Below are positions 5,121-31,703 of a stretch of DNA of 64,000 nucleotides, piece after piece (within the stretch, counting starts at the first letter, position 1; each line of letters opens with the position of its first letter). The translations under genes and the position numbers were made by a program. Under the pieces are notes generated by a model. That model had not been told where the DNA came from, ran no database searches, and saw nothing but the letters and a program-made list of their open reading frames with translations. This DNA is from a virus. The stretch lies in UHGV virus genome UHGV-1430452. One strand, 5' to 3'.

Positions 5121-5230
5121 AATGTTAATCTCCTTTTAAATAAATATAGTTTTTAATGGATTTGATTTAATTGCTGCGTTGGACTTTTGTTTAACTTCCT
5201 CGCATATGATTGCTCCTTTCTTGTGATAGA

Positions 5231-5270
5231 AAAACAAAAAGAGTCTCAACCATAATCGGTCAAGACTCCT
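5231..5270 (-). terminator. intrinsic terminator/attenuator hairpin
   Basis: Minus-strand GGAGTCTTGACC...GGTTGAGACTC + TTTTTGTTTT; near-duplicate of the hairpin at 1644..1690. Confidence 0.5.
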
Positions 5271-5277
5271 TATCTCT

Positions 5278-5305
5278 TCATTAAAGCCGTTGTATTTTTC
5301 GCGAT
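5278..5305 (-). promoter_or_regulatory. conserved early-gene motif copy, here immediately followed by a terminator hairpin
   Basis: ttcattaaagccgttgtatttttcgcga; lies between the stop of 5311..5601 and the hairpin at 5231..5270. Confidence 0.4.
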
Positions 5306-5310
5306 TCGTA

Positions 5311-5601
5311 CTATCGTAAAGATTTTGGGACAAGGCTTTTGATAATCTTTTTCTGATGCTCGTCCAGATCGTGATATAGAGTGAAACCCGTTGCCCCATT
5401 ATACTCATCGCCAAACTGTTTGTAGTACATAGATTGTTTCCATAACTCCGGATACTCTTTTTTGTACTTTGCGAGTTCTTTTGCTTTCTTGTCATACTGT
5501 TTATCCGAAATTATATTATTATCTAACTCGTAATAAATATATGAATGAAGTATGATATATCTTTGCAAGTAATCTATGTATTCGAGGGTTGTTAGTTCCA
5601 T
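5311..5601 (-). CDS. hypothetical protein
   Basis: 96-aa ORF. Confidence 0.4.
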   Translation of the reverse strand: MELTTLEYIDYLQRYIILHSYIYYELDNNIISDKQYDKKAKELAKYKKEYPELWKQSMYYKQFGDEYNGATGFTLYHDLDEHQKKIIKSLVPKSLR

Positions 5602-8600
5602 GGCAGCTCTACATCTTCATCATCGAATGGAATTTCCTCAGGAGATCCTTCCGGTATGTTCATGAAGTCTGGTAAATGAGAATCTCTAAAAGGAGGTTCA
5701 TGCCGATCTGAAGCATCCCAAGGCGGAGTACCAACATATGGATCGTCTGATATGAACCACTCAGCGTCTCCGTATTGACCAATAGTTTCAAGAGCATCAT
5801 CCACAAGCTTTCGATAATATGAACGATCAATATTTTCTTCATTTCCCGGAGACATCATTAACTCGGATTCAAGCCAACGGAAACCAGTTGTTCCTGTAGC
5901 TGCATAATATTTACCGTTCTGTTCTCGCATCAATAGTCCTCCACCCTTTCCAGGCTTAACCGGACAAAATTGCCCAACTTTACCTACGAAATGATAGTCA
6001 TGACCTTCAGCTATTAAATCGTTTAATCTTCGACACTCACTTTCGAAAGTTGTGTCCGATAACTTACCTTTCCTGTACTTATCTTCAAGTTTGGATAGTT
6101 CTTTTTCATACTCGGATACATCTGGAAGTTTTTCGTTCATATCCAAATATAAAGCAGATTTTACTGAGAATGCTTCGCACATATCTTTCAACTCAATTGG
6201 TTCTTTACTGAACAGTGTTTTAAATACATACGGAACTGCAAACTGTTTTCCAGTAGCTGTCCATTCTCCGGCATTCTTTCCATCTTTAAACCTAGCCACG
6301 TACACAGCATCATTTACTAAACAGAATTTTTCAAAGTTAGCCTCTGTTTCAAATGTATATCCGTATTCTTTACCGAATTTGGTTACGAAATCAATAATAT
6401 CAGGAGTAGCATCGGGTATCTTTATGGAATCTGTCTTGATATGACAAACAGTAAATCCTCGTTTCTGAACTTCTCTTTTCAATAATGTCATGAAGAGAGC
6501 TCCTCTTTTGGCAACAATGTTATCCTTATTTCTAGGATCTCTAAATTCATTTACGAAGCCAGCTGATGTCAAACCATAAATGGAATTGATAACAATCTTA
6601 AGTGCCTGCGCTAAATCAGCAGCCTGTTCTTCATTTAAGTATGGTTTCAACGCTCCACCTAATAATTGTCCAGCTGTTTCAAAGTCTTTATGCTTAATTG
6701 CAACACGAGCTTTTACAATATCCTCAAACCGTTTTGTATATTCTGGTCCAAATAGACATTCGAATATAATACTGTGAGGATGCTGAGAAGCAATGTCTCC
6801 ATCCCATACATTACCGTAATGCCCAGGTTCAGAGTAAACCCGACCGCCTTCTCCAATGGCTTCGCCTAAATATGTTGATTTACCAAACTCAAAAGTATAG
6901 CCTTTAAAGAATGGAAGAATGCTATAACCTTCTGGAAGCTTTTCGCCAGGAACGTAAGATCGATATAATGGAAGACCCTCAGAATCAAATACTCTGAAAT
7001 CATAATCATCTCCGAATTTAATTCTATATTCATCATAACGATCTGAGCTAACCGGTTCCGCCAAGTATCTATAGTTGAATACATTCTGCGGTTTTTTATT
7101 ATTTCCAAATATAATTCTTTTAGAAAGAGTATTTGTCGTATCATTAACTGTAACGTTTGTAATATCATGTAAGAGTTTTACAAGATCAACCTGAATCTGT
7201 CTAGCAACAAAGTCTGCTTTTCTTGCATTGAATACAGCTTCCGTCGCAATGACATCATTATCGCAATACTCAGCAACCTTTGCCCATAATTCTTCTGGAA
7301 CTGGTTGATCCCAAGGAAGACCAAGCTCTTGATGATGAATACCCAGTTCAATCTCCCATTTCTTTAAACTCTGTTTCACAGTTGACATATCATATACATC
7401 AATGTAACCAAGATTATATGCCTCACCAAACATGCCATTATCACGGCTTCCCTTTGGAGCATTAATAATTCTTTGAGATAACTTATATATTTCCTCATTT
7501 GTGTATCCCATAAGTCTAGCATAAATGATATGTCTGTCGTATTTACGTCCATTAAAATCAACAAGTTTAAACTTTAGAAGATTTTCTATTTCTGCTGGTG
7601 TAGGATTAATTAATCTAACTACTGTTTTTCCTTCTCCAGCAAACTTATAGTTTACCAAAAATAAATTTGGGAATACCTCACAATCATAGAATACAAGATC
7701 GTCAGTATCACCCTCATTACTTGTCTCTGAAGCCTCTTCACTCTTAAACGCCATCTGATTAACTAACTTCAAACACTCATCAGCCTGGTTACTACTACTC
7801 GCCGCCAAAGCAAATACAGCATTTTTCATATCAGACACATCATATCCAATACCACTCTCATAAGCCTCATCCAAAAGTTTCTTAATCATTTGAATACTTG
7901 GAGCTGTGTTACCCATAATTTCTTTATTCAGATGTTTCTTAAGAACGGATCTCAAATATTTCTCATTCTTAATACCATCAAAGTTAATCACATTTTTCAC
8001 CTCTTTCAACGGAAGACCTGAGCTAATTGTACGAATAACAAGATTGACACACTTAGTAAGTTTTCTTCTAAGAGATGTTTTACCGGTAAATACCTTAATC
8101 TCGATATCCTCATCAAATATACGACTTAATTCACTCACATCACCGTTATAAATATAATGAAGATGAATACCTCCACCACTTTTGCTTAACTCAGCATATG
8201 TTGGAGGCCATTTACTAGCTGCTTCAAGATTCTTCTCGAAACATTTATTACCATTCTCGTCCTTAATATCAAAGTCAATAACTACATGATTTTCAGGGAC
8301 CTTGACGTAATGAAGTTTTGATGTGTCAAGTTCTGATAGGGTAGTTGAAACTTCATCCCATGGCTTCGTCGGAGTTTCTTTTGAAGTAGCATATTGAGCT
8401 GGACAATCAGAACATTCTTTATCAAAAATAGACTCCTGTTCTTCAAATATAAGCCAGCTCTCAGTTTTCTCATCTCCAATAGGTTTCTCTGCTTTAACCT
8501 TTTTCTTCCCACCAATAGAGTCTTCGAAAATATCAGTCTTAAAACCGTCGTAATAACTCAGCAGCTTACTTCCATCTTCTTTCTCCACCTTCTCATCAAA

Positions 8601-9818
8601 TTCCAAAAAATAGTTTCTCAACTCGTCTTTGAATTTTGTCTTAGAAAATGGATACGGCACTTTTGCTTCCTCACAGTAGTTTTTATACATCTCCCATGCT
8701 GCTTTTAGCGTAGTACCATCTTCTTTCTTGAAGACACTGAATGAATCACATACGAAGTTATAAAAGTCATTAGAAGCCATAAGCATGTCCTTCGGAGCGT
8801 AAGTATCGTAATACTCTGGATCTTCTTTAAAGACTTGTAAACAATGATATGCGATTGCTCCCAACTCAAAATCAACCTGTTTGGTCAATCTACGATATTC
8901 TCGAATCGGTATCTTGTTTCCAGTAGGACGAACGTCAATCAAACGCCTTAGTAAACCAGACTTAGCATCAGTGATCTTAACAGGTGTGTTTGTACCCATA
9001 AATAAAAAACATTTGAATCTTGTTTCATATTGTCCTTTAAATTTTTCATTCATGGTCATTATCTCGTGTGAAATCACCGAGTTTAAGCGCGTATTATCTT
9101 CGATTTTTGATAAATCACCATCATGTTGTATCGCTACAAGAGGGTTATTCTTAAACGGTTCCAGAGCGAAAACATTATTCGGATTACCCAAAGCTTTTGC
9201 GTCAAAAGAACAACAATATCCTTCAAATAATTTCTCGATAATATTTATGATAGTTGATTTACCAGTACCACCAGCTCCGTAAAGCACCAGGAACTTTTGA
9301 AGTATTTTTGATTCCCCAGATACAACGGAGCCGATAGCCCATTCTATTTTACGTCGTTCTTCTTCGGAATATAGAGTACCGATGAGTTTATCCCATGCAG
9401 AAATATCGCCAGGTTCGAGAGGATACGGGAGTCTCTTGCTTGCGAAATTCTCTCTGCTTAATTCTGTGTTTGAAAATATAAGTTCATCATCGAGTACAGC
9501 AAAGTTATCACGCATCTGTTTCTGACAATATTTATGGAACTTATCGATTGAGCCACTGTCAGCATCCCACATATACTTAATTACAGGAGTACCTTCAAGA
9601 CGTCCTTCATTTTCAGCGACATATCTATCAAGTTCTCTATCTACAAGACGGGTTACATCGTCTTCATCTGTACTCCACATCTTTCGATCTTCATCCCAGA
9701 TAGCGTAAAAGTCCCTACCTCGAATCATGAGATCTTTAGATTTCAACATTTTGAACTTAGGAGAAACATCAACACTGCTTTTATTCGTCTTCGTTGATAC
9801 TGTCATGAAGTCCAACAT
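5592..9818 (-). CDS. fused replication protein: SF3-type P-loop helicase + AEP primase-like + family-B DNA polymerase with 3'-5' exonuclease
   Basis: Walker A LVLYGAGGTGKST; primase-like VIDFDIKD and GGGIHLHYIYNG; exo-like FYDCEVF and YCDNDV; PolB motif B KIVINSIYG; motif C HIKTDSIKI. Confidence 0.8.
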   Translation of the reverse strand: MLDFMTVSTKTNKSSVDVSPKFKMLKSKDLMIRGRDFYAIWDEDRKMWSTDEDDVTRLVDRELDRYVAENEGRLEGTPVIKYMWDADSGSIDKFHKYCQKQMRDNFAVLDDELIFSNTELSRENFASKRLPYPLEPGDISAWDKLIGTLYSEEERRKIEWAIGSVVSGESKILQKFLVLYGAGGTGKSTIINIIEKLFEGYCCSFDAKALGNPNNVFALEPFKNNPLVAIQHDGDLSKIEDNTRLNSVISHEIMTMNEKFKGQYETRFKCFLFMGTNTPVKITDAKSGLLRRLIDVRPTGNKIPIREYRRLTKQVDFELGAIAYHCLQVFKEDPEYYDTYAPKDMLMASNDFYNFVCDSFSVFKKEDGTTLKAAWEMYKNYCEEAKVPYPFSKTKFKDELRNYFLEFDEKVEKEDGSKLLSYYDGFKTDIFEDSIGGKKKVKAEKPIGDEKTESWLIFEEQESIFDKECSDCPAQYATSKETPTKPWDEVSTTLSELDTSKLHYVKVPENHVVIDFDIKDENGNKCFEKNLEAASKWPPTYAELSKSGGGIHLHYIYNGDVSELSRIFDEDIEIKVFTGKTSLRRKLTKCVNLVIRTISSGLPLKEVKNVINFDGIKNEKYLRSVLKKHLNKEIMGNTAPSIQMIKKLLDEAYESGIGYDVSDMKNAVFALAASSSNQADECLKLVNQMAFKSEEASETSNEGDTDDLVFYDCEVFPNLFLVNYKFAGEGKTVVRLINPTPAEIENLLKFKLVDFNGRKYDRHIIYARLMGYTNEEIYKLSQRIINAPKGSRDNGMFGEAYNLGYIDVYDMSTVKQSLKKWEIELGIHHQELGLPWDQPVPEELWAKVAEYCDNDVIATEAVFNARKADFVARQIQVDLVKLLHDITNVTVNDTTNTLSKRIIFGNNKKPQNVFNYRYLAEPVSSDRYDEYRIKFGDDYDFRVFDSEGLPLYRSYVPGEKLPEGYSILPFFKGYTFEFGKSTYLGEAIGEGGRVYSEPGHYGNVWDGDIASQHPHSIIFECLFGPEYTKRFEDIVKARVAIKHKDFETAGQLLGGALKPYLNEEQAADLAQALKIVINSIYGLTSAGFVNEFRDPRNKDNIVAKRGALFMTLLKREVQKRGFTVCHIKTDSIKIPDATPDIIDFVTKFGKEYGYTFETEANFEKFCLVNDAVYVARFKDGKNAGEWTATGKQFAVPYVFKTLFSKEPIELKDMCEAFSVKSALYLDMNEKLPDVSEYEKELSKLEDKYRKGKLSDTTFESECRRLNDLIAEGHDYHFVGKVGQFCPVKPGKGGGLLMREQNGKYYAATGTTGFRWLESELMMSPGNEENIDRSYYRKLVDDALETIGQYGDAEWFISDDPYVGTPPWDASDRHEPPFRDSHLPDFMNIPEGSPEEIPFDDEDVELPWN

Positions 9819-10029
9819 TCATCTTATGGCCTCCTTTCATTTTTTTAATATATGATTCTAATGTTTCATAGCACCAGTCATAAAAATTATGGTAAGTAAA
9901 AACAAAATCCGAGCCGCTTTTTATGCGAACTCGGACACTATCTTTACCGTTGGGGAACCAGTCTTCTACATGAATTGCAATTTCCGGAAATTGTTTGCTA
10001 AATTGTTTATATACATCTTCGTGCTTCAT
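9781..10029 (-). CDS. hypothetical protein
   Basis: 82-aa ORF. Confidence 0.4.
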   Translation of the reverse strand: MKHEDVYKQFSKQFPEIAIHVEDWFPNGKDSVRVRIKSGSDFVFTYHNFYDWCYETLESYIKKMKGGHKMNVGLHDSINEDE

Positions 10030-15869: not shown

Positions 15870-15958
15870 TTTTTATCTCCTTTCATGAACAGTTAAATTG
15901 TTTTTACCAAAAATCCCACTCGGGAAAATTTTGATCTTGAAAAAATAGAAATCGAAAA

Positions 15959-16030
15959 GAAACAGTGTAGGACTCGAACCCACAACCTACAGATATAAGT
16001 CTGTTGCTCTACCAATTGAGCTAACTGTTT
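15959..16030 (-). tRNA. tRNA with non-canonical 6-nt anticodon loop (anticodon unresolved; UAU or UUA are the options)
   Basis: Minus-strand fold: 7-bp acceptor AAACAGT/ACTGTTT, D-arm GCTC-AATTGGTA-GAGC, T-arm GTGGG-TTCGAGT-CCTAC; anticodon stem ACAGA/TCTGT encloses only CTTATA. Confidence 0.6.
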
Positions 16031-16080
16031 CTTCTCATAATAGCGCTTGTAAATTTCGCGAATATAGATCTTCAGAAACA

Positions 16081-24052: not shown

Positions 24053-24649
24053 ATGACAATAGGACAAAAAATAAAAGAATTACGCAATCAACTTAATATG
24101 TCGGTGGATGATCTTGCTGTGAAACTGGGTAAGAACCGTGCGACTATCTACCGCTATGAACGAGGAGATATCGAGAACCTCCCTCTCGATGTACTAGAAC
24201 CATTAGCAAATGCTCTTGAGACCACACCTGGTTATTTAATGGGATGGGAAGAAACTACGAAAAAGAAAGAGCCTTCAATTATCGATGAAGTTACCATGGG
24301 TGACGTTTTTAAAGCGTTACGTCTAGGAAGTAATTTATCGATAGAGGAATTTTCGCATGAGATTGGATTATCTGCCCAAGACATAAGCAATTATGAAGCA
24401 GGAAAGACTCCTATACCTGTAAATATAATTAATCTTGTTGCTGATTTCTTTGGCATATCAATAGCGGAAATAGTTAAGGCACACAAAAACAGCGAAAATA
24501 GAACGCCTTCTGGTTTCGAAATGAAAAAGGAACGATTTGAACGTTTTAAAGTTTGGAATAAAGAGTTTGGACGAATACATTTTACTGATGAAGAAATCAA
24601 TAAAATAATGGAATATACAAGGTTCTTACTTAGCCAAAGAAGACAGTAA
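24053..24649 (+). CDS. XRE-family repressor with two tandem HTH domains
   Basis: IKELRNQLNMSVDDLAVKLGKNRATIYRYERG and FKALRLGSNLSIEEFSHEIGLSAQDISNYEAG. Confidence 0.8.
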   Translation: MTIGQKIKELRNQLNMSVDDLAVKLGKNRATIYRYERGDIENLPLDVLEPLANALETTPGYLMGWEETTKKKEPSIIDEVTMGDVFKALRLGSNLSIEEFSHEIGLSAQDISNYEAGKTPIPVNIINLVADFFGISIAEIVKAHKNSENRTPSGFEMKKERFERFKVWNKEFGRIHFTDEEINKIMEYTRFLLSQRRQ

Positions 24650-24734
24650 GTCTACATAGGTTTACTCTATTTAAAGGAGGTGATGCCTGAATTCAGTTCA
24701 TCGTAGAATTTACATCAAAGGAAAGGTGGAACCA

Positions 24735-26312
24735 ATGACAACGTTTGATATGAACAACGCTGTAGACAATGCGTTCGGTATGGACGTATATGCTATCTAT
24801 CTTCGGAAAAGTCGAGCCGATGTAGAAGCAGAAAAACTTGGAGAAGGAGAAACACTAGCAAGGCATAGAAAGATACTAACAGAACTTGCTGCTAGAAAAG
24901 GATTGTATATCGGTAAGATTTACGAGGAAATTGTATCTGGTGAAACAATCGAAGCTAGACCTGAAATACAAAAACTGATAGAAGATTGTTATAAAGGGAA
25001 ATATAGAGGAATCCTAATAGTAGAAGTTACTCGTCTATCTCGTGGTAATCAAGGAGACGCTCAAAAAATACTCGACTGTCTCAAATATTCGAATAGAAAC
25101 AATGGTGTATTAGTTATCACTCCTACTAAGACTTATGACGTTGCACACAGCCAAGAAGACGAAGAATATATGGAGTTTGAATTGTTTATGTCTCGTCGAG
25201 AATATAAGATGATTCAAAAGCGTATGGATCGTGGCCGTAAACAAGCAGTCGTAGAAGGAAACTTCATGGGTAGTTACCGTCCCTATGGATATGACATCTT
25301 AAAAACCAAGACCGGACGAACACTTATACCGAATGAAGATGAAGCTCCTATCGTGAAAATGATTTACGAATGGACAGTTAACGATAATTTATCTCCTTTC
25401 AAGATAGCTGAGCGTTTAACTAATATGGGTGTTCCTACTTATTATGGTGAGAAGGATTGGTCTAAAGAAACAGTTAAAACCATTTTGACGAATCAGACAT
25501 ACATGGGTAAAGTTCGTTGGAATGATCGAATGACTGTTAAGACTATGGTCGACGGAGAACTTAAAGCTACACGACCTCGTTCAAATCATTCCGATCACTT
25601 CATGCTATATGATGGAAAACATATGAAACACGCACTCGTCGACGAAGAAACATTCAAAGCAGCCTCCTCTCGCTTTCATAACGATAGGACAAGATCAAAT
25701 CTAAAACTTGTTAATCCTCTTGCAGGACTTCTATTTTGTAAGAAATGTGGTAAATCTATGGGTTATCAATCATATAGACATAAGAAAAACGGACCAATGG
25801 ATCGATACAATCATAGACAGTCTGCTAATGGATGCAAGGTTAAGTCAGCAGTTGCTGAGGATGTTATAAAAGCTGTTATACATGCTTTGAAACTTTATAT
25901 AGAAGATTTCGAATTTAAGTTAGACAACACTCCAGATGTTGACGAAAATTCAATCAATACGCAGCTCGAAGCTTTACAAAAAGAAATACGAAAATCCGAA
26001 CGAAAACTTGCTAAGCTATTCGATTCTTGGGAAGATGAGAAGATAACAGATAATGAATTTGTTCAAAGGAAAGCCGTCCATAATCAGAAGATAGAAAATA
26101 TAAAGAGGCAAATGGAAGAACTCGAATATTCGATACCAGAAAGAGAAGAATATGAGGATAAAATAATATTGCTGTCTGAAGCACTTGTCGCTATCACAGA
26201 CGAATCGCTTGACGCAGATATTAAGAACGAGTATCTTAAAAGAATCATTGATAGAATAGAGTTTAGTAGAGAGAATAACTCAGAGTTTATACTAGATATA
26301 GACTTATGCTAA
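24735..26312 (+). CDS. int: large serine recombinase (integrase)
   Basis: N-terminal catalytic region YLRKSRAD...ARHRKIL; recombinase domain; zinc ribbon CKKCGKSMG...CKVKS; C-terminal coiled-coil; ~525 aa. Confidence 0.85.
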   Translation: MTTFDMNNAVDNAFGMDVYAIYLRKSRADVEAEKLGEGETLARHRKILTELAARKGLYIGKIYEEIVSGETIEARPEIQKLIEDCYKGKYRGILIVEVTRLSRGNQGDAQKILDCLKYSNRNNGVLVITPTKTYDVAHSQEDEEYMEFELFMSRREYKMIQKRMDRGRKQAVVEGNFMGSYRPYGYDILKTKTGRTLIPNEDEAPIVKMIYEWTVNDNLSPFKIAERLTNMGVPTYYGEKDWSKETVKTILTNQTYMGKVRWNDRMTVKTMVDGELKATRPRSNHSDHFMLYDGKHMKHALVDEETFKAASSRFHNDRTRSNLKLVNPLAGLLFCKKCGKSMGYQSYRHKKNGPMDRYNHRQSANGCKVKSAVAEDVIKAVIHALKLYIEDFEFKLDNTPDVDENSINTQLEALQKEIRKSERKLAKLFDSWEDEKITDNEFVQRKAVHNQKIENIKRQMEELEYSIPEREEYEDKIILLSEALVAITDESLDADIKNEYLKRIIDRIEFSRENNSEFILDIDLC

Positions 26313-26373
26313 ATGGTGGCTTTGCTGCCTGTAAGACCTGCACTAAAATGGTGTAGGTAACTTTTTCCCCGAC

Positions 26374-26421
26374 ATATATATCATGGTTGTGTTTCTTTTA
26401 TATCGCCACCATGATATATAT
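26374..26421. repeat. 14-bp perfect inverted repeat with 20-bp spacer (candidate attP core or operator)
   Basis: ATATATATCATGGT at 26374-26387 and its reverse complement ACCATGATATATAT at 26408-26421. Confidence 0.4.
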
Positions 26422-26468
26422 CACAGGGAAACTATTCTAAACGTTGATATATCAAGGAGGAGATATAC

Positions 26469-26720
26469 ATGAGAATAGTATGGAAAGACAGTGCGCCTAA
26501 AACAAAACCTTGGTTGACGTTCAAATATAGAGAACATATCGTTAGCCAATATGGAGATGGATGGATTACCGATATACCTGGTGATAACAATATCTATTTT
26601 CCGAGAGAGTGTGCTTATAATGCAATCGATAAGTCTCTAGGTGGAAAGACACGAAAAGCTAATCCTCAAAGACATAAATTAGGAATAAAAGTTATTGGTA
26701 GAAAGGACGATGTATCATGA
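26469..26720 (+). CDS. small protein, tandem paralogue 1
   Basis: 83 aa MRIVWKDS...GDNN.Y...NAID; GGAGG RBS. Confidence 0.55.
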   Translation: MRIVWKDSAPKTKPWLTFKYREHIVSQYGDGWITDIPGDNNIYFPRECAYNAIDKSLGGKTRKANPQRHKLGIKVIGRKDDVS

Positions 26721-26968
26721 GAATCGTATGGAAAGATAGTCATAAGCCAAAAGAATATGAACCTATGAAATATCGAAATATTTACATCTTCGGTACTCCT
26801 GAAGGATGGGAAGTAAATATAAAAGGAGATAATAATCTATACAAGACTCATTACTGTGCTATGAATGCGATTGATGATTACTTTGGAGATTTTGGAGAAC
26901 GTGGTACAGAAAAACGTAAACGATATGGAATACAAATAATAGGTAAGAAAAATGATGAGACTGCATGA
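26717..26968 (+). CDS. small protein, tandem paralogue 2
   Basis: 83 aa, also starts MRIVWKDS; ATGA overlap with paralogue 1. Confidence 0.55.
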   Translation: MRIVWKDSHKPKEYEPMKYRNIYIFGTPEGWEVNIKGDNNLYKTHYCAMNAIDDYFGDFGERGTEKRKRYGIQIIGKKNDETA

Positions 26969-26977
26969 ATCTCAAAA

Positions 26978-27011
26978 GCCACTTCCTTTTCTGGAGGTGG
27001 CATATTTTTAT
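26978..27011. terminator. bidirectional terminator between convergent genes
   Basis: GCCACTTCC-TTTTCT-GGAGGTGGC hairpin + ATATTTTTA. Confidence 0.5.
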
Positions 27012-27016
27012 CTAGG

Positions 27017-27568
27017 TTAGACATTTCTATTTTCGTATGACGTAAATTTTACATTTGTGTACTCGTTAACCAAAAAGCTACATGCTTCATTAACTGTTTT
27101 AACGACGGATTCCCCTTCTATATAACTCTGATAATTCCTTCTTTGATTTTCAAATTTAAGATCAGGTTCAACCATGGTATCTACACTTAACCATATTAGT
27201 TCCGTAGTATAGTCTTCGGTAAAATATCCTTTTATAAAAACCTCTTTCTTTCCAACCGTTCCGATTAGTTTTATAAACGACATATCATGCTTCGTCAGAT
27301 TAAACGCATATCTTATTCCTTTTACATATTGCCCGCCAAGTTTCCTCGACTTAATTGTTTCATAGTAATTATCTTTATTGTTGTTCTTTTTATGCCACTC
27401 ATCCGATATACAAATCCACATTAAAAGTTCGCTTAAAGTTGCAACCATGGATATGCTATTTTGTTTGTCGCTTGTGCTTAAATATTCATGAAATCTTTTA
27501 TGAGATTCTCTTAATCCATGGTTTATATACATTAGCCTAAATTCTTCGACACTATTCATTATCTGCAT
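27017..27568 (-). CDS. moron-like hypothetical protein
   Basis: 183 aa, visibly AT-rich, bracketed by terminators at 27632-27662 and 26978-27011, GGAGG RBS. Confidence 0.5.
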   Translation of the reverse strand: MQIMNSVEEFRLMYINHGLRESHKRFHEYLSTSDKQNSISMVATLSELLMWICISDEWHKKNNNKDNYYETIKSRKLGGQYVKGIRYAFNLTKHDMSFIKLIGTVGKKEVFIKGYFTEDYTTELIWLSVDTMVEPDLKFENQRRNYQSYIEGESVVKTVNEACSFLVNEYTNVKFTSYENRNV

Positions 27569-28945: not shown

Positions 28946-29281
28946 TTAAACATCAACAGCCCCCGTATAGGAAGGCTGAGTTTTTAACCAATCGTATGCA
29001 TTTTGAATTAGATCGCCTATAAGTAGTTTCTGAGCCTCATCCCATTCAATGCTAAGATAATCCATGTTGGTGTATGGAAAAGATGGCTCTCCTATGATTC
29101 TACCAGCCATATAATCCTTATCGTATTGACGACCTTCTTTATCAATGTACGATTCTACAATAATAGTAGCTCGCTGATTAATTTCTACGTTAATGGCGGC
29201 AATATGATGATAGCTTACTACTACACCATTAGCGGTTTTAATGTTTACTTCTATAGCCAAAATATCACTCCTAAACTCCAA
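28946..29281 (-). CDS. small protein downstream of the fibre gene (possible fibre chaperone), paralogue of 31724..32005
   Basis: 111 aa; shares the SYIDKEG/SYIDEHAR and YDWLKTQP/YEYLKTLP blocks with 31724..32005. Confidence 0.4.
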   Translation of the reverse strand: MEFRSDILAIEVNIKTANGVVVSYHHIAAINVEINQRATIIVESYIDKEGRQYDKDYMAGRIIGEPSFPYTNMDYLSIEWDEAQKLLIGDLIQNAYDWLKTQPSYTGAVDV

Positions 29282-31703
29282 TTACTTGTCTAAGAACAAA
29301 CCTGTTATTGGTATAAGCAACTCCATTGTTTCCCTGTCCGGTATAGTTATTTTCAACCCCACCGGTGAGTTTGCCATCAGATATGTTCAATACTTTAACA
29401 CTCGCATATCCGCAAACTTCAGACATAAGCGTGAAACACCACGGTTTTCCTGAGTATGTAGAAACAGCGCTTTTAGGCACGAAGAAGCTATGTAATCTTG
29501 TATTAGTAGCAGACCCATTATAATAGTCAGAGAATATCAATACGATTCCATGAGGTTGATTTGATACAGGGCTACTAAAAGTTATGGTATGAGTATTACT
29601 CGGCCATAAACTTCCGGTCCATAGTGTATTATTTGTAAACCTTTCGGTAACTGAACCTCTTACAAAGCCATTATCAGCAGTAAACGTCATAGCAGTTCTG
29701 ATACTGTGAGGGGAATATGAATCTGTTGGGGTCATGAGAAAATAATTTTCGCTACTCCCATCAACTTTTCTAGCAAACATTTTTACTGTAGGACTGACTC
29801 CTCCTCTATCCCCTTTAACGCTAACATAAGAAGCCACACCATCGTGTGACTCAAAATTTGCTAACATATCAGCAATATCTGCTCTTAATACCACGCGATA
29901 CTCTCCATCATAGCGGCTAGTGTAAATTGTTTCAGTAGTTGAGGCAGCATTAGCTTCGTATGTAATGATTGGATCATCATCATCTTCGAAATAAACGAGA
30001 ACATCGTCTGTAAATGCTTCATCGTTTTCGATGACTAAAGTACCTTTTACAGTAGATATCTTACCTCTACCGTTATTCATGGATATTACTGTATTATCTG
30101 AATTTTTCCCGAGATCTATTAACGATTCACCAAAAGTAGCCAACTCAGTAATTCCGTTTCTCATTTCGATGTCTGTACTACTAATAAGAATATTTCTGCC
30201 AAGAGTTGATGTTCTCTTATCAGCAACCATAAGTCCATTAGCATCGAAACCGAGGAAGTTTGTAGCGGTTTTAGCAGCTTCTACAGCCTGACCATAAGGA
30301 TCAATCCAGCTACTCCATGTTGAAGTTGAAGTTCCAACACGCCAATATTCTTTTCCAGTACCTTCGACTTTGGCTGTCTGTCTCGGATATCCTCCGCTAG
30401 TATCTTTGTACGGCATATCAGTTCGTAAATGACAGTAAGTCCCTACTCCAGACAATCCTATAGTAGAACAATACTTGAATTCGGCAACTGATGTACTAGG
30501 ATAATTATTTATGTAATATAGCGGCGGGTAATTCGAATTTTTGGTATCTTTTACGTCAAGTCCGTCGCCTTTTGGTCCTTGTGGTCCAGTAGGTCCTTGT
30601 GGTCCTGTTGCGCCTGTACTACCAGTTTCTCCTCGTGGTCCAGTAGGTCCTTGTGGTCCAGTGGCTCCTGTGGCTCCGGTGTTACCAGTAATACATACAC
30701 CATTAGATGATGGAGTATATGATGTAGTGTTGTCTGTGTACGTTACCAGTGTTCTTCTCCAAATATACTTTCCATCAGCCCACGTAGGTTGACTCGTACT
30801 CCATGATCCACCTGTTAATGTTGTCGGGGAATTGGATGAATAGAACTGTTCTTGTGTACTTTTTATGGTAGAACCCAGTGTTACGCTCAATCCATTAGCA
30901 GTCTGTTCTAGAGTAGAGACCTCGCCTTCCAAATCTGTTACTTTCGAACTTAAACCACTGGCAGTCTGTTCTACCGTACTAACCCTGTTTCCAAGAGAAG
31001 TAGTTTCCTGTACATTTGCTTCTATTCTGTCAGCATTTTGATCGATACTGGATTTAGCGTTTGTTAGATCTGTAGTGAGCTTCGATACATCCGAAGTTAA
31101 GCCATCAGCAGTCTGTTCAAGCGTGCTTGTCCTGACACCTAATTCATTTGTGGCGTTCACATTTGCTGTAATACGTTCTCTTTCTATGTTCAGATCAGCT
31201 TCGTACTCCGTTCTGAGGTCATTCACGGCTTCCCATGAACTATCACAAACTGGGCTTGTGTATGCATTTGACGTTGGGTTCTTATACGTAATGAGATATC
31301 TCGTCCATAAATACATACCAGTAGACCAGGTAGGCATGGAAGTTACCCATGACCCGCCTGTCTGTGTTGTTTTGGAAGTGCTTAAATAATATTGCTGAGT
31401 GATGCTATCAATGCCAGTACCAGTAGGACCCTGAGATCCTGTTGCCCCGTCGGTTCCATTCTTAGGTATGTAAGATACTGAATATGTTGTAGATGTATCA
31501 CCCTCTGTATATGTAATGACGGTTCTGCTCCACAAATACTGTCCAGGTGATACAGAGGGGATTGTCGTACTCCATGTACCGTTTGGAGGATTTGTGCCTG
31601 ACGTACCAGCCTGATAAGTTATGACTGTGGATGTAATTCCCTTGCCGTCTATTCCGTCTATAATGTCCGAGATAGTAACCTCGGCTTTAGCTATCACAGC
31701 CAA
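29271..31703 (-). CDS. tail fibre protein with collagen-like Gly-X-Y repeats
   Basis: 810 aa; GATGSQGPTGTG and GATGATGPQGPTGPRGETGSTGATGPQGPTGPQGPKGDG; heptad-like segments. Confidence 0.65.
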   Translation of the reverse strand: MAVIAKAEVTISDIIDGIDGKGITSTVITYQAGTSGTNPPNGTWSTTIPSVSPGQYLWSRTVITYTEGDTSTTYSVSYIPKNGTDGATGSQGPTGTGIDSITQQYYLSTSKTTQTGGSWVTSMPTWSTGMYLWTRYLITYKNPTSNAYTSPVCDSSWEAVNDLRTEYEADLNIERERITANVNATNELGVRTSTLEQTADGLTSDVSKLTTDLTNAKSSIDQNADRIEANVQETTSLGNRVSTVEQTASGLSSKVTDLEGEVSTLEQTANGLSVTLGSTIKSTQEQFYSSNSPTTLTGGSWSTSQPTWADGKYIWRRTLVTYTDNTTSYTPSSNGVCITGNTGATGATGPQGPTGPRGETGSTGATGPQGPTGPQGPKGDGLDVKDTKNSNYPPLYYINNYPSTSVAEFKYCSTIGLSGVGTYCHLRTDMPYKDTSGGYPRQTAKVEGTGKEYWRVGTSTSTWSSWIDPYGQAVEAAKTATNFLGFDANGLMVADKRTSTLGRNILISSTDIEMRNGITELATFGESLIDLGKNSDNTVISMNNGRGKISTVKGTLVIENDEAFTDDVLVYFEDDDDPIITYEANAASTTETIYTSRYDGEYRVVLRADIADMLANFESHDGVASYVSVKGDRGGVSPTVKMFARKVDGSSENYFLMTPTDSYSPHSIRTAMTFTADNGFVRGSVTERFTNNTLWTGSLWPSNTHTITFSSPVSNQPHGIVLIFSDYYNGSATNTRLHSFFVPKSAVSTYSGKPWCFTLMSEVCGYASVKVLNISDGKLTGGVENNYTGQGNNGVAYTNNRFVLRQVIGV

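Follow-up and report, generated by a model that had tools for sequence, protein, structure and literature searches.

The window, a 64,000-nt stretch of virus genome UHGV-1430452, carries two small genes, ORF A and ORF B, downstream of a repressor-like gene and an integrase gene. The repressor-like gene (24053–24649, + strand) encodes 198 aa with two HTH_3 domains (Pfam HTH_3, E 4e-24), and the next gene (24726–26312, + strand) encodes a large serine integrase of 528 aa with the Pfam domains Resolvase, Recombinase, and Zn_ribbon_recom. The ~156–157 nt between the integrase stop at 26312 and ORF A hold a terminator-like hairpin and a 68-bp imperfect inverted repeat. The hairpin, located by a consensus scan of the + strand (ACCTGCAC..GTGTAGGT at 26336–26358, then AACTTTTT, ending at 26368), is a candidate terminator that probably ends the integrase transcript, and an equivalent hairpin and T run follow the integrase in relatives. 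The inverted repeat (26364–26431), which we identify below as attP, has arms of 24 nt each (26364–26387 and 26408–26431) that are 88% complementary, and its core is TGTGTTTCTT/TTATATCGCC, with the crossover TT at ~26397–26398. In Rfam, this repeat gave only sub-threshold matches to miRNA hairpins. Elsewhere in the window, ARAGORN reported a tRNA-like gene at 15958–16031 (− strand), labeled “tRNA-???” with its anticodon given as “ta.”

ORF A (26469–26720, + strand) is the first gene past attP and encodes a basic protein of 83 aa behind a strong ribosome-binding site read from the sequence (AAGGAGGAG, 26454–26462, + strand). ORF B (26717–26968, + strand) encodes a second protein of 83 aa that, judged from composition, is close to neutral. 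Because the start of ORF B overlaps the stop of ORF A in an ATGA, translation of the two is probably coupled. Past ORF B, a second terminator-like hairpin (GCCACTTCC..GGAGGTGGC, 26978–27001, nine pairs of which six are G-C) is followed by a T run up to 27011 on the + strand and lies between ORF B and the convergent gene orf183. The original prediction described two ATGA-overlapping 83-aa genes with a common MRIVWKDS start and common GDNN.Y and NAID blocks, followed by a terminator and lying on the same strand as the repressor and integrase. The coordinates proved exact, and all of these features were recovered, but it had overlooked the hairpin and the inverted repeat between the integrase and ORF A.

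The two proteins are 42% identical over their full length of 83 residues (BLASTP, E 7e-21), which as an alignment score is far above chance. In a collection of 5.8 billion proteins, relatives of 80–90 residues formed ~135 clusters at 90% identity, all unnamed or labeled “hypothetical,” and an exhaustive profile search of 1.84 billion representatives yielded 98 representatives at 50% identity. Invariant positions of the family include W5, R21, G31, W32, D39, Y43, A49, N51, D54, G58, G72, and G77. Among orthologues, dN/dS was 0.02–0.22 for ORF A and ORF B alike, so purifying selection on each is strong. On all these grounds, the two are real protein-coding genes.

The genes had also been called tandem-duplicated. 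They do form a paralogous tandem pair, but the duplication is ancient, with A-type and B-type copies falling into separate clades of a neighbor-joining tree and the A-type gene preceding the B-type gene in every tandem locus (the window, L006–L011, L014–L026, and L034). ORF A is an A-type member and ORF B a B-type paralogue. Single-copy phages mostly carry a B-type gene, the phage encoding protein P0082 carries an A-type gene, and in L022 and L034 a decayed A copy sits beside an intact B copy. The fixed order, taken together with the single-copy phages, indicates that the pair is old and maintained, yet that either member can suffice. This pattern fits overlapping function with some specialization. 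We rejected a toxin-antitoxin reading of the ATGA-overlapped pair because ORF A and ORF B are paralogous to one another.

Families gave the pair no function, in line with what had been said of it originally. Our profile search found no match for ORF A or ORF B in Pfam, PHROGs, NCBIfam, or PADLOC, and the sole family-library match, to DUF6065 (E 0.19), was at chance level. A PDB sequence search with the family profile returned nothing at E ≤ 10, and we found no sequence or fold similarity to PHROGs or PDB entries. AlphaFold2 predicted the same small fold for both proteins (each pLDDT 77, pTM ~0.6), with strands near residues 17–20, 23–28, 31–34, and 41–43, helices at 46–57 and 66–71, and a last strand at 75–78. 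This predicted fold of β-sheet plus helices is not a Xis-type winged helix, and neither protein matched excisionase or HTH models in Pfam, NCBIfam, or PHROG. An AP2/ERF DNA-binding domain was likewise considered and rejected, as an AtERF1 domain aligned at the helix without significance.

The exhaustive profile search also matched large repeat proteins (SHIRT and Listeria-Bacteroides repeat proteins, one of them 5525 aa). We rejected these giant proteins as homologues because their scores added up many individually weak repeats, each matching a GW..P..Y hairpin motif at an i-Evalue ≥ 1e-4. The window itself encodes, at 29271–31703 (− strand), an 810-aa tail-fibre-like protein with collagen repeats and repeated G.W.T..P......Y.W.R motifs, and it was a hairpin motif like that of this protein that produced the spurious summed matches.

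Two genomic states of the attP region

The identical family protein P0082 occurs in two contexts among the relatives. In L002 and L003, the gene order is repressor, serine integrase, P0082, and convergent lysis genes. In L001 and L004, bacterial genes (GDPD and a truncated MFS transporter) precede P0082 and the same lysis genes. L001 and L002 are identical rightward of the center of the inverted repeat (CCATCATTCATGTGC ATCTT/TTATA GCACAAACATGATGG) and unrelated leftward of it, and in two further pairs, L021/L023 and L025/L026, homology breaks at the same central TT(T)A. We therefore have a phage form and an integrated form in three sets of relatives (L002/L003 vs. L001/L004, L021 vs. L023, and L025 vs. 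L026), and the core TYTTTTAYA is common to all relatives. On the strength of these breakpoints, the inverted repeat at 26364–26431 is attP.

In the integrated form, the small gene is the first gene at the prophage end opposite the integrase, which lies tens of kilobases away, and it sits beside split host genes. These are mostly the exonuclease III gene, xth, interrupted at its NVAH motif. In the cases seen, the host DNA upstream of the integrated small gene was a gene fragment on the opposite strand. In L006, the window's own P′ arm (TTATATCGCCACCATGATATATATCACAGGG) is joined at the core to a host-type xth fragment ending in the NVAH codons. Given this junction and the location of most integrated relatives in xth, the window phage probably targets xth as well. 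The window and all copies of the exact phage found in human-gut metagenomes have the attP form; a P′-arm search of metagenome and viral contigs and a look-up of the exact protein returned attP forms only and no integrated copy of this phage.

Between attP and ORF A, a perfect palindrome, TTGATATATCAA (26444–26455), abuts the ribosome-binding site. It has no second copy with fewer than 2 mismatches in the 64 kb, and thus no tie to the repressor/cro region of the window. Related elements, AACGTTGnTATTATA and CCTTGATATATCAA, occupy the same place in some relatives and are absent from others. An operator and an extended −10 element (TGnTATATC) are both conceivable readings of TTGATATATCAA, and we conjecture that, along with the TGnTATTAT-type elements of some relatives, it may act as a promoter or operator. 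A clear conserved promoter or repressor-operator copy upstream of the family genes was not found in the window or its relatives, and in some relatives the ribosome-binding site follows the P′ arm after only ~10 nt. Exact matches to ATATATCAWGG number three in the 64 kb and are confined to 26376–26457; each attP arm contains one, and the other overlaps the ribosome-binding site of ORF A. In addition, 26394–26419 in the P′ arm region is 81% complementary to 26447–26472, and a transcript reading through could therefore hide the ribosome-binding site of ORF A along with its start codon. L002 has a similar echo (ATGTGC..TTTATA).

Conservation of the cassette across relatives

We assembled 62 loci from metagenomes, MAGs, and IMG/VR, including 36 distinct phage-form integrase/small-gene pairs. 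Every phage-form locus had the same order, namely an integrase homologue (57–98% identity, same strand), a hairpin with a T run, attP, and a family gene. The small gene began 25–100 nt past attP, and in all 36 distinct phage-form loci it lay 60–100 nt from the attP core. When the test was reversed, each of the 21 IMG/VR integrase relatives with enough downstream DNA carried a family gene, and even a divergent family copy (MRIIGKDS...) was found beside a 62%-identical integrase. Integrase-less loci fell into three groups: prophage left ends, contigs starting at the small gene, and derivatives that have lost the lysogeny module (L015 and L022, for example). Co-occurrence of the small gene with this integrase clade is strict.

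The surroundings are mosaic. The repressor, cro, orf183, an XhlA-like gene, and the holin occur only in subsets of loci and are replaced or absent elsewhere, and many loci that have both the integrase and the small gene lack the repressor-like gene in particular or carry another gene in its place. Judged by gene content, the conserved unit is the cassette and not the neighborhood. Integrase and small-protein distances were correlated (Mantel r 0.88 and 0.46, p ≤ 5e-4), a measure that shows co-inheritance rather than contact. The gene orf183 (27017–27568, − strand) is convergent with ORF B, lies between it and the lysis genes, and drew no hits from Pfam, NCBIfam, or PADLOC. Only the closest relatives, L006–L010, have it, which is the pattern expected of a true accessory gene.

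A candidate directionality role for ORF A and ORF B

Among the roles raised in the original prediction, recombination directionality is the one that the evidence favors most. We propose that ORF A and ORF B represent a previously undescribed family of recombination directionality factors (RDFs) belonging to this large serine integrase clade, a reading that infers function from position and that we consider to have about an even chance of being correct. The small genes and a large serine integrase are carried by the same phage. Support for the RDF reading comes from the fixed position past attP in 36/36 phage-form loci, from the 21/21 result of the reverse test combined with mosaic flanks around a constant cassette, and from the finding that P0082 lies beside either the integrase or split host genes, with the break at the center of the inverted repeat. 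The co-variation of integrase and small-protein distances is a further argument, as are the layout of known Bacillus subtilis phages and the precedent of a phage with two RDFs, both compared below. Several points weaken the RDF reading. The genes are oriented unlike sprB, nothing phage-borne lies upstream of them in the prophage, no conserved promoter or operator was found, and linkage alone could explain their co-inheritance with the integrase.

The window shows the unintegrated phage, with integrase, terminator, attP, ORF A, and ORF B in that order. Crossover at the central TT of attP, with host xth as the most likely target, would place the integrase at one prophage end and ORF A and ORF B at the other, where they would be the first genes inside attL and would point inward. 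Under the RDF reading, and by analogy with known serine-integrase RDFs, the small proteins would on induction bind to the integrase where its second DNA-binding domain meets the coiled coil. This binding would switch the integrase from attP × attB integration to attL × attR excision. The two copies could be redundant, divide the labor, or form a heterodimer.

The closest layout that we know of is that of the B. subtilis phages SPβ and phi3T, in which the prophage has the integrase gene at one end and the RDF gene at the other, with only attP between them after excision (PMC6957869). The SPβ factor, SprB, has 58 aa and no similarity to known proteins, and sprB is transcribed together with upstream phage genes after DNA damage (PMC4191935). 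An SPβ-type prophage splits a host protein-coding gene, and the cassette is thought to be mobile between otherwise different phages (PMC6957869, PMC4191935). As in SPβ sprA-attP-sprB, attP in the circular form of our phages has a large serine integrase on one side and a very small orphan protein on the other, the two lie at opposite prophage ends once integrated (seen in all three sets of relatives), and the flanks are mosaic. Still, the resemblance is one of arrangement, and we found no homology of ORF A or ORF B to SprB. There are two paralogous small genes here rather than one, and they run from attP toward the prophage interior, in contrast to sprB, which shares a transcript with phage genes upstream of it. 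The host also differs, being of a gut Clostridia lineage (one locus is labeled Oscillospiraceae), and integration is usually into xth instead of spsM or kamA.

A precedent for two factors serving one integrase is the Int30 phage, whose two RDFs are similar in sequence and predicted structure and are both active with a single large serine integrase (Shin et al., NAR 2025, PMC12286644). The window phage likewise combines one large serine integrase with two similar small genes, here candidate RDFs. However, the listed N-termini of the Int30 factors, MDSKTFKSGRVTIVIHS and MSVIKQTSSDKDTKI, are unrelated to MRIVWKDS, and in a comparison of N-termini none of the ~70 RDFs predicted or verified in that study (PMC12286644) begins like ORF A or ORF B. 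Known RDFs are hard to find because they have no common fold or sequence motif and usually neither synteny with nor a fixed position relative to their integrase (PMC12286644). The lack of a family match is therefore what would be expected of a new RDF. The locus tags of the Int30 genes, RS27795 and RS27775, suggest that they are non-adjacent, whereas the window genes overlap and their order is kept across divergent phages.

Two small adjacent genes are also a feature of the fdxN element of Anabaena, where excision by the large serine recombinase XisF needs the accessory genes XisH and XisI. XisH and XisI are not known to be paralogous, and both exceed ORF A and ORF B in size. The window integrase matches the NCBIfam XisF model weakly (E 6e-20, far below the cut-off), and we found no sequence relation between ORF A or ORF B and XisH or XisI.

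If the RDF reading is true, this clade would provide a new set of integrase, RDF, and att sites along with a positional rule of its own, and a natural case of two conserved paralogous factors in which to study the evolution of directionality control. Large serine integrases are widely used in genome engineering, and their “reverse gear” requires the cognate directionality factor. Here, an integrase clade of human-gut phages has a candidate factor at a fixed and recognizable position after attP, and the att sites can be read from natural attP/attL pairs. If the reading is false, one would still have to account for why an orphan family is so strictly linked to an integrase.

Other explanations place the small proteins at the same position with a different task. 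The proteins could be small DNA-binding regulators or architectural factors that act at the att-proximal palindrome or the P′ arm, whether for autoregulation or to control transcription entering from attL, and make no direct contact with the integrase. We consider this account unlikely, if worth keeping in view. Accessory “moron” genes expressed in lysogens to benefit the host or the prophage, with roles such as superinfection exclusion, anti-defence, or lysogenic conversion, are also an unlikely explanation. In temperate phages of Gram-positive bacteria, morons are classically found between attP and the lysis module, and ORF A and ORF B form their own small transcription unit with a terminator. 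However, morons differ among related phages, whereas this gene is constant across the integrase clade down to 57–62% identity, and real neighbors such as orf183 come and go. In addition, ORF A and ORF B have no PADLOC match, and their sequences contain no signal peptide or membrane segment.

Two further proposals keep the integrase as the partner, and we judge each to be quite improbable. The first is a two-component switch, in which expression of ORF A and ORF B would be wired to the recombination state, either by integrase occupancy or by the exchange of the P arm for host DNA, and in which the paralogues would have separate tasks (one activating attL × attR and the other blocking attP × attB) or form a heterodimer. 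Genes of the ORF A/B type start within 10–70 nt of the P′ arm. This spacing would make both the integrase-binding site and the crossover point overlap with the promoter or leader of the genes. In the second, the proteins would modulate the integrase as it works toward integration or once excision is over, for example by blocking re-integration or integration by a superinfecting relative, and would be made by read-through from the integrase only while attP is intact. In the circular form, the small genes do lie downstream of the integrase and co-oriented with it, no independent promoter was identified in short-spacer relatives, and inhibition of attP × attB is already known for RDFs (PMC12286644). 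Yet the terminator hairpin past the integrase is conserved in relatives, and this proposal supplies no directionality factor for excision, even though attL × attR recombination is beyond large serine integrases acting alone (PMC12286644).

Finally, it is extremely improbable that the small genes are, as originally suggested, the last cistrons of a repressor-integrase operon that is constitutive in lysogens: they are on the strand of both genes and a terminator follows ORF B, but attP and a terminator-like hairpin separate ORF A from the integrase, no uninterrupted transcription unit is left intact in the lysogen, and integrated relatives carry the genes tens of kilobases from the integrase, beside host DNA. 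The accompanying argument that co-orientation made expression in lysogens probable fails for the same reason, since integration puts the integrase and the small genes at opposite prophage ends and co-orientation with the repressor is then uninformative about lysogen expression.

Rearrangements near the cassette

L006 carries a 4.7-kb segment (5165–10000 of that locus) between its integrase and its A/B pair. At the left junction, which is a hybrid site, a window-type P arm and core run into a P′ arm of another type, and a third family gene, B-type, comes next. At the right junction, a host-type xth 3′ fragment is joined at the NVAH codons to a window-type P′ arm. Within the segment there are also a DUF7211 gene and an ORF in which a stray IRVLWKDS fragment occurs. 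The segment appears to have arisen either from integrase-mediated recombination of attP with an attL-like site or from host-DNA capture.

Natural deletion and fusion products were also seen near the cassette (P0197, P0185, P0211, and P0172, as well as L015, L022, and L034). P0197 joins the integrase N-terminus to the C-terminus of the small-protein family, and other examples include an integrase C-terminus with a B-type copy and truncated A copies. We rejected P0197, P0185, P0211, and P0172 as domain fusions and read these chimeras as deletion products. Some phages have no repressor, integrase, or attP and still carry the small genes. Judging from these products, the cassette region seems prone to rearrangement.

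In seven relatives (L021, L024, L025, L030, L033, L035, and L052), an xth fragment of ~400 nt lies on the opposite strand between the integrase stop and attP. The fragment covers the gene from about KPIIxCGDLNVA through the C-terminus and is absent from the window phage. After integration it may stand in for the host 3′ end that has been displaced, or it may be a relic.
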